46,422 nucleotides of DNA from an uncultured Muribaculaceae bacterium (GTDB lineage Bacteria > Bacillota_I > Bacilli_A > RF39 > UBA660). The stretch covers positions 1 to 46,422 of the forward strand of contig CAZEVZ010000001.1 in the NCBI GenBank assembly GCA_964514935.1, in the 5' to 3' direction. How positions within the stretch are numbered: position 1 is the stretch's first letter; every line of letters begins with the position of its first letter. Of this stretch, positions 1-45,102 are shown one piece after another. The translations under genes and the position numbers were made by a program. A model generated the notes under the pieces. It searched no databases and was not told the origin of the DNA. It saw only the letters and a program-made list of their open reading frames with translations.

Positions 1-818
1 ATGCTGCATATAATACACGATTAGAAGATGTCGAAGATTTAATCAGAGCCAATGCAGGATTTCATAATTCAATATTTAGAGGTGAAGATGTCTCAAAATA
101 TATGCCCAGTAGTGTTGTCAATGGTGGGGATGGTTCCATATATGATAGAATTGCTGGTACCAATGGCTATAGTATGTTTGAGGATCTCTATGTTGGAGAC
201 TATATTGTAGCAGATAAAGTTAATGCGACAGTTAATGGAATTGTGTGGCGAATCGCTGGTTTTGATATTTATTATGGAAAAGGTTCTACTCCGCTTAATA
301 CTCATCATGCGGTCATCATACCAGATACGAATTTAACTTCTTCGGTTATGAATGATTCAGCTACGACAGAAGGGGGGTATGTTGGAAGTAAAATGTACAC
401 AACGACAATTCCGAGTGTTTTAACTACCTATATCAATCCGGTATTTAATGGTCATGTACTTTCGCATAGAACATTACGTACAACTTATGTGTGCAATGCA
501 ATAAGTATGGGATATGGTGGTTGGACTGGAACAGCATGTGGTTGGGATTGGTATACGCGTCAAGCTGACTTGATGAATGAGGTACAAGTAACTGGTAATA
601 TGTCCGTTTCTAGTAGCTATGTTGATACGGGAACTGATAATATCCAATTTCCGTTATTCAGGCTAAAACCTGGATTTGTCAATGCGCAGCGAAGCACATA
701 TTGGTTAAGGTCTATTGCATCGTATACATTATTTGCTATAATTGGTGGTTATGGTGTCAGTGATGTAATAGATGCTAATAATTCGTTAGGTGTGCGACCA
801 TACTTCTATATCGGTTAA
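1..818 (+). CDS. Secreted tail-fibre-like family protein, paralogue 1 (5' end lies left of the window); long form with YWLRS...GVRPYFYIG C-terminal domain
   Basis: Frame 3 is open from the window edge. Its translation (AAYNTRLEDVEDLIRANAGFHNSIFRGEDVSKYMPSSVV...) is colinear with residues ~70-330 of the 31648..32640 paralogue. Track ORF 102..818 is only the part after an internal Met. Confidence 0.75.
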   Translation, partial: AAYNTRLEDVEDLIRANAGFHNSIFRGEDVSKYMPSSVVNGGDGSIYDRIAGTNGYSMFEDLYVGDYIVADKVNATVNGIVWRIAGFDIYYGKGSTPLNTHHAVIIPDTNLTSSVMNDSATTEGGYVGSKMYTTTIPSVLTTYINPVFNGHVLSHRTLRTTYVCNAISMGYGGWTGTACGWDWYTRQADLMNEVQVTGNMSVSSSYVDTGTDNIQFPLFRLKPGFVNAQRSTYWLRSIASYTLFAIIGGYGVSDVIDANNSLGVRPYFYIG

Positions 819-13202: not shown

Positions 13203-13415
13203 TTGTCAACTATAGGTTGCAAAGTCCTTAAGTATTTTACTTGAGGACTATCATTTCTATTAAAATAATACCATAAAATAAGGGAATGTGCAATAAAAAT
13301 GGTGGTAATTTTTAGAAAAAAATTTGTGTCAAATTTTCTCCATGTTTTTGATAAATTCTTTATTTATAGGCATCTACGGAGATTATAAAAGTTGTTAAGT
13401 AAAATACTTAAGGAC
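13203..13415. promoter_or_regulatory. Switch cassette A: promoter segment bracketed by inverted repeats (candidate invertible promoter, promoter currently facing away from 13430..14494)
   Basis: The left dyad is TTGTCAACTATAGGTTGCAAA at 13203-13223. IR-L is GTCCTTAAGTATTTTACTTGAGGAC at 13224-13248. IR-R is GTTGTTAAGTAAAATACTTAAGGAC at 13391-13415 (22/25 complementary, outer 19 perfect). The minus-strand promoter is TTGCAC (13293-13288), 17 nt, TGgTATTAT (13270-13265). Confidence 0.6.
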
Positions 13416-13429
13416 AGAATGGTGATTAT

Positions 13430-14494
13430 ATGAAGAAAATATGGAAGGATAATGCGAAGTTAATACTGATTGTGACTATAGCAATTGTTTTGGCTAGTGG
13501 AGCAACGTATGCGGCAACGACAATGTATGATTCAAATATCGTTGGATATGATAATACGACTAGTGGTTTAAGATCTACGAATGTACAATCTGCTTTAGAT
13601 GAATTGTATGGTACAGTTGCTGAAGTAATTATCAATATTCGAGATAAAGTAGAGGAACTATATGAAATAAAAGATATTGCCAGCGGTGAAAGTCCCGCAG
13701 GGTTACATAATGCGATATTTAGAGGTAAAAACGTTTCAAAATATATGCCAAGTAGTATTGTCTCTGGAGGTGATGGTTCGATATACGATCGAATAGCTGG
13801 CACGAATGGTTATTCAATGTTTCAAGATTTATATGTTGGTGATTATATTGTTGCTGATAATGTCAACGATACAGTCAATGGTATCGTGTGGAGGATAGCT
13901 GGTTTTGATATATATTATATGTCTGGATATCCGACGGCGCTATCAAGTCATCATGCAGTGATAGTGCCTGATGAAATATTGGGAAAAGCAAAAATGAATA
14001 CATCAAATGTTACAACTGGTGGCTATGTAGGAAGTGCTATGTACACAACATTGACATCAACAACATTACCAACATATATTACTCCAATATTTGGTAGTCA
14101 CGTACTTGAATATAATACATTATTATCAAATGATGTAGGAACAACTTTATATAATAGATATGGTAGTAATACAGGTGCTTCAAATAATTGGAGTTGGTAT
14201 AATAGAAAATTAGATTTGATGAACGAAGTACAAGTGACTGGAGCAACTGAATGGTCAAGCAGTGGATTTGATATTGGTGCAGACACTGTTCAATTTCCAT
14301 TATTTAGACTAAGACCAGAATTTAAAATAGCCTATACCAGTAATGTGCATTCTTCAGATACTAGAGCTCATTATTGGTTACGTTCAGTGATGTCCTCATC
14401 CTCTTTTGCGTTTATTGCAGGTGAAGGATGTAGTGGTATGGGTGTTTTCGCGGGTGAACAATATGGTGTTCGTCCATACTTCTATATTGGATAA
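13430..14494 (+). CDS. Secreted tail-fibre-like family protein, paralogue 2 (long form, YWLRS...GVRPYFYIG domain)
   Basis: The Shine-Dalgarno is GGTGAT. The signal peptide is MKKIWKDNAKLILIVTIAIVLASGATYA, followed by the YDNTTSGLRSTNVQSALDELY motif. The C-terminal ~250 aa are colinear with paralogues 1 and 5. Confidence 0.85.
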   Translation: MKKIWKDNAKLILIVTIAIVLASGATYAATTMYDSNIVGYDNTTSGLRSTNVQSALDELYGTVAEVIINIRDKVEELYEIKDIASGESPAGLHNAIFRGKNVSKYMPSSIVSGGDGSIYDRIAGTNGYSMFQDLYVGDYIVADNVNDTVNGIVWRIAGFDIYYMSGYPTALSSHHAVIVPDEILGKAKMNTSNVTTGGYVGSAMYTTLTSTTLPTYITPIFGSHVLEYNTLLSNDVGTTLYNRYGSNTGASNNWSWYNRKLDLMNEVQVTGATEWSSSGFDIGADTVQFPLFRLRPEFKIAYTSNVHSSDTRAHYWLRSVMSSSSFAFIAGEGCSGMGVFAGEQYGVRPYFYIG

Positions 14495-20407: not shown

Positions 20408-20436
20408 TTGACAAAATAAGAAAAATTTGCTATAAT
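20408..20436 (+). promoter_or_regulatory. Perfect consensus sigma-A promoter driving the large non-coding RNA
   Basis: TTGACA (20408-20413), 17-nt spacer, TATAAT (20431-20436). A second TTGACA lies at 20397-20402. Confidence 0.75.
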
Positions 20437-28096: not shown

Positions 28097-28726
28097 CTAA
28101 AATTTTCGATATAAACCAATAGCCTTTCCTAAGATGGTAACATCATCTAAAATTATTGGTTCCATATAATCATTTTCTGGTTGTAATCTAAAGTGACCAT
28201 TTTCTTTATAAAATGTTTTTAACGTAACTTCATTTTCATTATTCATAGCAACAACCATGTCACCATTTTTGGCATTTTTTGTTCTCTCAACAATGACAAC
28301 GTCATCTGAAAGTATTCCCTTATTGATCATGCTTTCACCGTCAACTTTAAGGGTAAATACTTCTTTTTTCTTTGGAATTAAATATGCAGGTAAGGCAAAA
28401 ACTTCATTTGGTACCTCGATTGCTTCAATAGGTGAACCAGCTGTCACTTTACCAAGTAGTGGTACATTGACAACATCGTTTCCTTTGTCTTCATATTCAT
28501 TTGGAACCAATAGTTCCATCGCTCTGTTTCCCTCTTTACTCCTTTTAATATATCCTTTGTTAATTAGATGATTTATATGTACATGTACGGTTGCTGGACT
28601 AGATAAATTTATCGCCCCACAAATCTGTCTAATTGAAGGTGGATATTTATTTTCTGCATGAAATTGTTTGATATAATCTAAAACTTCTCTTTGTTTTCTT
28701 GTTAATCCTTCTGTTTTTTGTCTCAT
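28097..28726 (-). CDS. lexA: LexA repressor
   Basis: It has a winged-HTH N-terminus (LTRKQREVLDYIKQF...PSIRQI) and an S24 peptidase C-terminus (VDGESM...LKTF). The start is taken at the Met preceded by AAAGGAG (the track ORF is 10 codons longer). Confidence 0.9.
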   Translation of the reverse strand: MRQKTEGLTRKQREVLDYIKQFHAENKYPPSIRQICGAINLSSPATVHVHINHLINKGYIKRSKEGNRAMELLVPNEYEDKGNDVVNVPLLGKVTAGSPIEAIEVPNEVFALPAYLIPKKKEVFTLKVDGESMINKGILSDDVVIVERTKNAKNGDMVVAMNNENEVTLKTFYKENGHFRLQPENDYMEPIILDDVTILGKAIGLYRKF

Positions 28727-28773
28727 ATTAACTCCTTTCATAAAGTATATTATCACAAAAAAATATGTTTGTC

Positions 28774-31418: not shown

Positions 31419-31632
31419 ATGTCAACTATAGGTTGCAAAGTCCTTAAGTATTTTACTTGAGGACTATCATTTCTATTAAAATAATACCATAAAATAAGGG
31501 AATGTGCAATAAAAATGGTGGTAATTTTTGAGAAAAAATTTTGTGTCAAATTTTCTTCATATTTTTGATAATCTCTTTATTTATAAGCATCTATGGAGAT
31601 AATAAAAGTTCTAAAGTAAAATACTTAAGGAC
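31419..31632. promoter_or_regulatory. Switch cassette D (candidate invertible promoter)
   Basis: The dyad is at 31419-31439. IR-L is at 31440-31464. IR-R is GTTCTAAAGTAAAATACTTAAGGAC at 31608-31632 (23/25). The minus-strand promoter is TTGCAC (31509-31504), 17 nt, TGgTATTAT (31486-31481). Confidence 0.6.
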
Positions 31633-31647
31633 AGAATGGTGATAAAG

Positions 31648-32640
31648 ATGAAGAAAATATGGAAGGACAATGCAAAGTTAATATTGATTGTAACTATAGC
31701 AATTGTATTGGCTAGTGGAGCGACATATGCCGCCACGACAATGTATGAATCAAATACCGTTGGCTATGATAATACGACAAGTGGACTTAATTCAACCAAT
31801 GTACAGGGAGCACTAGATGAACTATACGTATCAGCAAATAATTATGTAGCATATGATACTAGATTAGAAAATGTAGAAGATTTAATAAGAGCTAACGCAG
31901 GATTTCATAATTCAATATTTAGAGGAGAAGATGTTTCAAGTTATATGCCAAGTAGTGTTGTTTCTGGAGGAGATGGCTCTATATATAACCGAATTTCAGG
32001 AAATGGTTACTCATTATTTGAAGACTTATATGTCGGAGATTATATCGTAGCCAATAATATAACATGGCGAATAGCAGGATTTGATATCTATTATGGCAAA
32101 GGAGATACGGCATTTAATACTCATCACGCTGTAATTGTTCCTGACACGAACTTAACTAGTGCCGTTATGAATGATTCGAATACCACAAGTGGAGGATATG
32201 TTGGAAGTAAGATGTATACGACGACCTTACCAAGTGTTCTAACTACTTACATCAATCCCGTATTTAGTGGCCATGTACTATCACATAGAACATTATTAAC
32301 GAATAGTGTAGGTACTAGTGTAGCAAGTTCTGGATATGCAGGTTGGACTGGTGCAGCAAATAGTTGGGCTTGGTATGATAGACAAGTAGATTTGATGAAT
32401 GAAGTGCAAGTTACTGGCACTACAGCGGTATCAAGTAGTTTTTTCGATGTCGGGGCAGATAATATTCAATTCCCATTATTTAGACTAAGGCCAGAATTTG
32501 TTAATAAGCAGAGAAGTTGGTATTGGTTGCGTTCGGTTTCGTCCTCGTCTTATTTTGCTCTTATCAACGGCGGCGGGGATAGCAACCTCGGCAGCGCAAG
32601 CAACTCTTGCGGGGTGCGCCCAGCTTTTTACATCGGTTAA
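31648..32640 (+). CDS. Secreted tail-fibre-like family protein, paralogue 5 (long form; GC-rich NNC-codon 3' end)
   Basis: The start is at MKKIW as in the other paralogues (the track ORF begins 4 codons earlier). It is colinear with paralogue 1 and ends YWLRSVSSSSYFALINGGGDSNLGSASNSCGVRPAFYIG. Confidence 0.85.
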   Translation: MKKIWKDNAKLILIVTIAIVLASGATYAATTMYESNTVGYDNTTSGLNSTNVQGALDELYVSANNYVAYDTRLENVEDLIRANAGFHNSIFRGEDVSSYMPSSVVSGGDGSIYNRISGNGYSLFEDLYVGDYIVANNITWRIAGFDIYYGKGDTAFNTHHAVIVPDTNLTSAVMNDSNTTSGGYVGSKMYTTTLPSVLTTYINPVFSGHVLSHRTLLTNSVGTSVASSGYAGWTGAANSWAWYDRQVDLMNEVQVTGTTAVSSSFFDVGADNIQFPLFRLRPEFVNKQRSWYWLRSVSSSSYFALINGGGDSNLGSASNSCGVRPAFYIG

Positions 32641-44888: not shown

Positions 44889-45102
44889 AGTTTTTCAAAA
44901 AGGCGTATGTTAGAAGTAGTAATAAACAAGGTATGTATAGAGAGAATATGGTTGGTGAAAATATTTGATACATTGTCTATGAACTTGTCTAATTAGCTGA
45001 TGATAATCCGCAGCAATGCGTTAAAATTAAGAGGGTATAACAGTAGTTATAAAGTAAGATGGTAACGCGGGATTTCTCGTTCTTACATTATGACTATTTT
45101 TT
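44889..45102 (+). promoter_or_regulatory. T-box leader (tRNA-sensing riboswitch) of leuS
   Basis: The promoter is TTGTTT-17-TGcTAATAT (44854-44882). A GA-motif region AGAAGTAGTA/AGAGAG is present. The T-box sequence AAGATGGTAACGCGG lies at 45056-45070. The terminator helix is TAGTtATAAaGTAAGA (45044-45059) / TCTTACaTTATgACTA (45081-45096), then T-run 45097-45102. A candidate CUU specifier lies at 44984-44986 (low confidence). Confidence 0.75.

Follow-up and report, generated by a model that had tools for sequence, protein, structure and literature searches.

The window analyzed here, a 46,422-nt stretch (positions 1 to 46,422 of contig CAZEVZ010000001.1, assembly GCA_964514935.1), belongs to a short-read metagenome-assembled genome (MAG), termed G000, that comprises 1.04 Mb in 94 contigs with 67% completeness and 31% GC. 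Its forward strand carries members of a paralogous family of genes for exported proteins, defined by the conserved N-terminal module MKKIWKDNAKL...YDNTTSGL.S.NVQ.ALDELY:

1–818, plus strand: family member cut at its 5' end
13430–14494, plus strand: gene A, family member of 354 aa
26544–27164, plus strand: gene B, family member of 206 aa
27472–28056, plus strand: gene C, family member of 194 aa
31648–32640, plus strand: gene D, with a signal-anchor, the conserved N-terminal module, and a variable C-terminal part

G000 contains 31 copies of this N-terminal protein module. Searches of Pfam, PHROGs, and NCBIfam returned no informative family name, and only a weak DUF6273 match was obtained at the C-terminus of A and D. 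For gene D, the family start codon lies at 31648; the list of open reading frames has it begin at 31636, an ATG inside the leader and ribosome-binding site (RBS) region (AGAATGGTGAT, 31636–31647).

Genes A to D are each preceded by a cassette with a common order of parts: an element termed UP, a left site, an interior of ca. 143 nt, an inverted site, a leader, and the start codon. In the following list, OFF denotes the orientation in which the predicted promoter points away from the gene:

31420–31439, plus strand: UP element of cassette D (TGTCAACTATAGGTTGCAAA), a conserved 20-nt imperfect dyad outside the left site
31440–31464, plus strand: left site of cassette D, with arm GTCCTTAAG, spacer TATTTTA, and arm CTTGAGGAC
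31465–31607, no strand assigned: invertible interior of cassette D, 143 nt, uniform in its left part (to 31529) and more variable in its right part
31481–31509, minus strand: predicted promoter of cassette D, from a consensus scan
31608–31632, plus strand: right site of cassette D, with degenerate inner arm GTTCTAAAG, spacer TAAAATA, and outer arm CTTAAGGAC
31633–31647, plus strand: leader of cassette D with RBS (AGAATGGTGATAAAG)
13204–13429, plus strand: cassette A, OFF, with UP element 13204–13223, left site 13224–13248, right site 13391–13415, and leader to 13429
26317–26543, plus strand: cassette B, OFF, with sites 26337–26361 and 26505–26529
27245–27471, plus strand: cassette C, OFF, with sites 27265–27289 and 27433–27457

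The truncated gene at 1–818 probably belongs to the cassette at the end of contig C3, which follows GlnS and PedC. The 110-nt stretch at 31420–31529, the starting point of this analysis, consists of the fixed 20-nt flank, one 25-bp recombination site, and the predicted promoter with its upstream region. Both the repeat map and the consensus-predicted promoter agree with the labels that a preliminary description had given to its parts (“dyad”, “IR-L”, and “outward promoter”).

All four window cassettes contain perfect 19-nt inverted repeats that extend imperfectly to 25–31 nt. The window contains eight occurrences of the 19-nt repeat core GTCCTTAAGTATTTTACTT, where chance would give 0.02; in G000, this core is found 67 times at up to two mismatches, and a backwards control gave no hit. 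Genome-wide, we found 20 complete cassettes among at least 31–35 in all. As in the window, the inverted sites of these complete copies lie ca. 174 bp apart, and every one of them ends 14–15 nt upstream of a paralogous start codon, a distance filled by the leader with its RBS, GGTGAT. The UP element is present in all 20 and marks exactly where cassette homology begins. Since it lies outside the sites and is not moved by inversion, it may be a binding site for an accessory protein or part of the read-out of the OFF state.

Several further features of the cassettes were noted. On the minus strand at 31548–31560, and at the same place in other cassettes, ATATGAAGAAAAT forms a 13-nt copy of the end of the leader and the start region ATATGAAGAAAATATGG; it is followed by TTGA, would read MKKI-stop, and, whichever way the interior is turned, sits upstream of the promoter. 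This copy may be a vestige of an origin of the cassette by inverted duplication of the 5' end of the gene. A subset of G000 cassettes (e.g., C3:19500–19520, C39, C24:230–260, and C88) carries A7-(C/G)CATCGATATCGATG directly upstream of UP, which on the opposite strand forms a small hairpin followed by a T-run and could act as a terminator for an outward OFF-state transcript; other cassettes adjoin the bidirectional terminator of the upstream gene. Four cassettes are broken or odd (C4:28931–29122, C35:347–438, C24:6302–6340, and C4:13858–14050): one has the unequal spacers TATTATA and TATTTTA, one is flipped with promoter and right site deleted, one is reduced to the right site and four codons, and one precedes an unrelated small gene with its distal site degenerate and its promoter facing that gene. 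Intrinsic bending by phased A-tracts was discarded as a source of constraint, as AA/TT periodicity in the interiors did not exceed that of shuffled sequences (fraction 0.65 for G000 and 0.08 for a second genome, G009).

Two relatives were used for comparison. Species X, the closer one, was found via gene D homologs in ENA assemblies (e.g., L147 and L148); it was sampled from three metagenomes, possibly representing more than one strain. Its housekeeping orthologs share 83–85% protein identity with those of G000, and 31–49% of their 4-fold degenerate sites differ. G009 belongs to the same genus (its MiaB-like ortholog is 76% identical) and contains ca. 59 site matches, i.e., roughly 30 cassettes, of the same architecture with TATTATA or TATATTA spacers. 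As its cassette interiors cannot be aligned to those of G000, it informed us on architecture only. The UP element is partly conserved in species X as TGTCAACTTATGGTATAAAA and absent from the G009 cassettes. At the G009 loci L044–L060, the switch precedes at least four N-terminal families (MKNKRV.., MENKKI.., MTGRKKNIY.., and MTKKRYY..), none of them related to the G000 family, indicating that the switch module is shared across unrelated cargo genes. A search of genome contigs for related loci yielded one distant homolog, whose 2-kb contig shows an ordinary promoter but lacks a cassette, and a search for contigs encoding the MiaB-like protein upstream of locus D yielded none.

In G000, G009, and species X alike, the site spans 25 bp and consists of two inverted 9-bp arms around a 7-bp spacer composed entirely of A and T; the outer arm reads RTCCYTAAG, and degeneration is frequent in the inner arm. 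Of 44 cassettes from the three genomes, 43 carry matching spacers at both ends, across at least five spacer variants that are paired like with like (among them TATTTTA, TATTATA, TATATTA, and TAATTTA). Shuffling of the pairings gave P < 1e-4 for G009 and P = 0.03 for species X. Such matching is expected if strand exchange falls within the spacer, the mode of tyrosine recombinases, whose core sites likewise combine inverted arms with a spacer of 6–8 bp that is identical in both partners. The lone cassette with mismatched spacers, C4:28931, is predicted to be locked. The G000 assembly yielded no serine recombinase. Its tyrosine recombinases comprise a XerC-like and a XerD-like gene as well as a third enzyme, encoded at C58:4634–5740, that fits no curated equivalog, has a 59%-identical ortholog in G009, and is patchily distributed in the family. 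From this co-occurrence we infer that the third, non-Xer enzyme is the best candidate for the invertase, although at 67% completeness the true invertase gene possibly lies outside the assembly. When metagenomes were scanned, the exact gene-proximal junction had no match, and the degenerate site pattern matched only two T-box terminator hairpins (L065 374–398 and L066 4994–5018). These hairpins, which fit the site consensus GTCCYTAAG-N7-CTTRRGGAC, lie upstream of aminoacyl-tRNA synthetase genes on unrelated contigs and were dismissed as chance look-alikes of switch sites, although a pattern search could be misled by them.

The uniform half of the interior contains a single good promoter match, located on the minus strand of cassette D: a -35 element TTGCAC (31509–31504), a 17-nt spacer, and an extended -10 element of TGg plus TATTAT (31489–31481). 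The consensus scan, with the TG extension included, scored it as -35 TGCACA with a 16-nt spacer. This block is nearly invariant in 20 copies, and its layout recurs as TTGCAA-17-TGgTAATAT in species X and as TTTACA-17-TGcTATAAT in G009. In cassette D, the match is directed outward across the left site and away from gene D (OFF); judged from its sequence, the putative extended -10 promoter would face the gene only in flipped copies. Such copies exist. With orientation in a MAG representing the population majority only, 18 of the 20 complete G000 cassettes are OFF and two are flipped ON (C24:37–229 and C88:2379–2573), their interiors reversed between unchanged homologous flanks; six of 18 cassettes are ON in G009. 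Within G000, it is only paralogous copies that differ in orientation (2/20). Direct evidence for inversion comes from its relative, species X, in which one locus, located after an HhH-GPD gene, is OFF in L147 and ON in L148. Both versions encode the identical protein P0003, and the ON junction in L148 is exactly as predicted for a crossover in the spacer. The cassettes are, like known invertons, short segments flanked by inverted repeats.

Inverted repeats in a long 5' leader could alternatively pair at the RNA level as a cis-regulatory element without any inversion of DNA. Each site is itself a hairpin, and matching spacer changes would also preserve an RNA helix. Nevertheless, reversed interiors within unchanged flanks occur in each of three genomes, and a comparison of two samples shows this at one locus; no conserved promoter lies upstream of the unit, where homology starts only at UP, and no Rfam family matches the cassettes; gathering thresholds were reached only by an OLE RNA and a T-box elsewhere in the window. 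We therefore regard RNA-level action as extremely improbable. The two Rfam hits merit mention in their own right: the OLE RNA (20433–21017, 360 bits) is notable in a genome of ca. 1–1.5 Mb, and the T-box leader (44897–45087) scores 95 bits.

The preliminary description had drawn attention to these cassettes by reporting that the non-coding part is better conserved than the coding sequence it controls. Direct string comparison showed that 13204–13313 and 31420–31529 are identical over exactly 110 nt, with identity ending at both edges. The reported two to three differences in the other copies amount to two each relative to this shared sequence, G>A at position 81 and G>C at position 101 in copy B (26317–26426), and G>A at position 12 and A>C at position 62 in copy C (27245–27354). 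Over the other 118 nt of the cassette, A and D have 14 differences, and the drift described for the coding sequences (CDSs) is evident in 29 differences over the first 180 nt of A and D, including 21 of 60 third positions. Full 110-nt identity is rare, as it is found in only two of 190 cassette pairs, with a typical pair differing at 1–5 positions; as a short-read assembly, G000 may contain collapsed repeats that inflate the identity of its cassettes, and ca. 28 of its contig ends fall inside cassettes.

For a systematic comparison, we used the 14 loci with a complete cassette and at least 60 codons. The mean pairwise difference p is 0.061 for the 110-nt block, 0.038 for the left site, 0.055 for the promoter half (left interior), 0.140 for the right interior half, and 0.091 for the whole cassette of ca. 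230 nt; codons 1–60 gave pS = 0.51, dS = 0.96, and dN = 0.11. Nucleotide diversity (pi) averages 0.088 over cassette columns and 0.51 at 4-fold degenerate sites. The gap in uniformity between cassette and synonymous sites is roughly an order of magnitude, and cassette divergence clearly stays below synonymous divergence, in keeping with the initial report.

What keeps the cassettes uniform? If purifying selection alone were responsible, all conserved positions would be needed for protein recognition, and the copies would have diverged independently without exchange. Several patterns within G000 are what this explanation expects. Among 19 copies, 152 of the 233 cassette columns show no variation at all, and what variation there is lies mostly in a few columns with pi of 0.5–0.8 (only eight exceed 0.5), which are near saturation like 4-fold sites. 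The distance between two cassettes also tracks that between their own CDSs (Mantel r = 0.43–0.51, p <= 0.008), a correlation implying that homogenization is incomplete or not genome-wide, and degenerate relic cassettes occur where the switch is broken. Column concentration and the Mantel correlation fit constraint with co-divergence, making the within-genome signals mixed, as a Sawyer-type permutation test for conversion tracts gave p = 0.0005, a value that uneven polymorphism frequencies along the unit can inflate. Under the same reservation, the best tract connects the tandem neighbors C60_3974 and C60_4895 over columns 180–304, from the right site to codon 25, and the run shared by A and D spans 30 polymorphic sites against 28 at the 95% level.

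Comparison with species X is more decisive. The two genomes share at least five cassette/gene loci in orthologous positions: after GlnS-PedC, before HSP20-CCA, after 3HCDH-Mrr-167aa-198aa, before Ddl, and after HhH-GPD, the last being the position of cassette B. Locus D itself offers no usable synteny because no cassette follows the MiaB-like ortholog in any other species of the genus. Mean distances within and between the genomes are as follows:

Promoter half: 0.069 within G000, 0.078 within species X, 0.275 between
Right half: 0.155 within G000, 0.169 within species X, 0.365 between
Whole cassette: 0.103 within G000, 0.133 within species X, 0.291 between
CDS third positions: 0.379 within G000, 0.273 within species X, 0.441 between

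The ratio of within- to between-genome distance is accordingly 0.25 for the promoter block, 0.36 for the whole cassette, and 0.86 for CDS third positions. In the cassette tree, copies split by genome with 100/100 support, and those of G000 form a shallow star. In the tree of N-terminal CDSs, species X is nested within the diversity of G000, whose copies do not form one clade. The positional orthologs B/L147_5892 and C/L147_7195 differ by 0.313 and are no closer than non-orthologous between-species pairs (mean 0.29). Paralogs within a genome are thus closer to each other than positional orthologs are between genomes, the hallmark of concerted evolution.

These comparisons weigh heavily against constraint as the only cause. 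The promoter block that appears “invariant” in G000 (93% identity) is only 72% identical between species, a difference of 27.5%. The whole cassette differs by 29%, whereas ordinary orthologous intergenic DNA of G000 and species X diverges by only 0.12; cassettes evolve faster between species than ordinary intergenic DNA, yet are more uniform inside each genome. Furthermore, 23 columns are fixed or nearly fixed species differences common to all copies of a genome. A constrained core is nonetheless apparent, as 100 of 229 alignable columns, covering the outer site arms, the -35 and -10 elements, the 5' leader, and the RBS, are invariant in both G000 and species X. The agreement of the two spacers within a cassette likewise speaks for constraint. 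Because cassettes cluster by genome despite positional orthology and CDSs do not, constraint fails as a sole explanation, and in the form stated above we consider it quite unlikely. We conclude that concerted evolution, through gene conversion or replacement, is the main cause of the uniformity, with a constrained core superimposed. The preliminary description had offered sequence-specific constraint or ongoing gene conversion as an either/or; both operate, and the clustering by genome shows that conversion-type concerted evolution dominates.

Recent spread could also make copies similar, if a young mobile unit, either MITE-like or a duplicated cassette-plus-gene, had dispersed and its CDSs had since come to differ by fast or diversifying evolution. 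Terminal inverted repeats, dozens of copies, and the occurrence of both orientations suit such a unit, as do the absence of the gene family from 13 other species of the genus and the lack of a cassette after the MiaB-like ortholog in any other species. Rather than varied targets with target-site duplications, however, all complete copies occupy the interval between a homologous UP element and a homologous leader and RBS, at the same distance to a homologous start codon. At least five loci were, moreover, occupied before the split from species X, and pi among paralogs at 4-fold sites (0.51) exceeds the divergence of the species (0.37), from which it follows that the genes are old and the cassettes are not. 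The CDS paralogs predate the G000/X split and are much less homogenized at synonymous sites. A recent expansion is hence very unlikely to account for the data.

One G000 family member outside the window, C50:3556, lacks a switch and has an ordinary-looking promoter; only a remnant of UP (TATAGGTAGCAAAG) remains upstream. Its N-terminus retains states of species X (VSYDNT and ATFAATTMY), and it pairs with X_L150 in the CDS tree, behaving as though it had dropped from the exchange pool. Synteny between window positions 25676–28756, L147 5023–11852, and the G000 contig C48 is broken at cassettes: species X has the order HhH-GPD, cassette-gene, cassette-gene, Fer4, 259aa, topoIV, and in G000 two cassette-genes are followed by lexA, with a third cassette-gene (C48:128-) preceding Fer4-259aa-topoIV. 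Such breakpoints coincide with cassettes as recombination between cassettes would produce.

The explanation that best accommodates these observations, and that we consider probable, is a set of invertible-promoter cassettes that are flipped by a tyrosine recombinase, homogenized mainly by exchange, and secondarily constrained. The repeat architecture, orientation polymorphism, divergence figures, clustering by genome, and positional orthology on which it draws were observed directly; the identity of the enzyme, the activity of the promoter, and the molecular route of homogenization are deduced from them. In the proposed model, a tyrosine recombinase would exchange strands within the 7-bp spacers of two inverted sites and thereby flip the interior of ca. 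150 bp, so that the extended -10 promoter would face the gene in one orientation (ON) and point away in the other (OFF). With the majority of copies OFF, only few surface proteins would be made at once. Non-reciprocal exchange would homogenize the dispersed copies of one genome, giving concerted evolution within it and fast turnover between species. As a secondary effect, a core of ca. 100 positions (outer arms, spacer pattern, -35 and -10 elements, transcribed leader, and RBS) would be held by direct functional constraint, since every copy has to suit one and the same recombinase and RNA polymerase. The simplest homogenizing route would be RecA-type gene conversion among near-identical repeats of 230 nt, a process that would reinforce itself at high identity and be blocked in the CDSs by synonymous differences every few bases.

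Alternatively, the recombination machinery of the switch might itself homogenize the cassettes by inter-locus exchange on sister chromosomes, either through a natural form of recombinase-mediated cassette exchange or through Holliday junctions that migrate out of the spacer. Different spacers would in that case serve as heterospecific sites, insulating groups of switches from each other and from harmful inter-locus inversions, and the synteny break at cassettes between G000 and species X would be a footprint of inter-locus events. We consider this scenario unlikely. In its strict form, with recombinase-mediated exchange as the sole homogenizer, it was rejected: genome-specific states extend to UP and leader, both located outside the sites, and the ratio of within- to between-genome distance follows a left-to-right gradient from 0.25 to 0.60 instead of forming a block bounded by the sites.

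The closest known system to the proposed promoter switches is the mpl (P35) family of Mycoplasma penetrans. According to PMC2268961, which describes the work of Horino et al. (2003), this family has 38 genes, an individual invertible promoter precedes most of them, and chromosomal tyrosine recombinases are the candidate invertases. Both systems combine a small, low-GC genome with dozens of paralogous surface-protein genes that are spread over several loci and controlled by individual invertible promoters. They differ in the proteins, which here carry a signal-anchor and NVQ-motif module and are not P35 lipoproteins, in the sequences of the sites, and in the host, here an uncultured gut or rumen-type Firmicute known as a MAG, whose switching is predicted from its sequence. 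Promoter inversions are also known from the capsular polysaccharides of Bacteroides fragilis, which depend on the global recombinase Mpi, and from the “inverton groups” of gut bacteria (PMC11892184). Common to these systems and G000 are many dispersed invertible promoters with homologous inverted repeats, control over surface structures, and a trans-acting recombinase, here a candidate. Mpi, however, is a serine recombinase, a class not found in G000, where the sites are of the tyrosine-type arm-spacer-arm design. Against a median of 0 invertons per genome for Bacillus-like Firmicutes in a survey (PMC11892184), G000 has more than 30 predicted switches in ca. 1 Mb. Closer in phylogeny are the RecV switches of Clostridioides difficile (cwpV, flagellar, and cmr; PMC5914908), in which, as presumed here, one tyrosine recombinase of a Firmicute inverts several short regulatory segments that lie upstream of surface-related genes. 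Unlike those switches, the cassettes described here form one near-identical family. In C. difficile, the switches number fewer than ten and their repeats are dissimilar; several of these switches act via terminators or a riboswitch context and not through a moved promoter. At the level of the site, the design resembles Cre/loxP, FRT, and heterospecific lox sites, as inverted arms flank an asymmetric A/T-rich spacer that is identical in partner sites; it departs from Cre/loxP in its 9-bp arms, 7-bp spacer, and often degenerate inner arm, and the candidate enzyme shares only the tyrosine-recombinase fold.

That conserved 5' modules can evolve in concert is already familiar from surface-gene families. 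In Helicobacter bab/hom paralogs, as in the G000 family, gene conversion keeps a conserved module alike across the copies of one genome as the remainder of each gene diversifies, and the 5' regions of Mycoplasma vsp/vpma genes are likewise conserved modules homogenized by gene conversion while the gene diversifies. Different from those cases, the homogenized module is here itself a substrate of site-specific recombination and is more uniform than the part of the gene that encodes the signal peptide. Our literature search found no paper on concerted evolution of invertible promoter cassettes.

Since near-identity within a genome is coupled to fast divergence between species, “better conserved than the gene” cannot be read here as deep conservation; the cassettes provide a clean natural example of a non-coding regulatory module that evolves in concert. 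In practice, they also break short-read assemblies, as seen from the contig ends within them. For the organism, an uncultured, genome-reduced Firmicute, the data suggest that a large share of a genome of ca. 1–1.5 Mb is spent on combinatorial surface variation, with more than 30 genes predicted to be switched individually, a number comparable to that in Mycoplasma penetrans. Such a system is relevant to the question of how these bacteria may escape phages or the immunity of a host.
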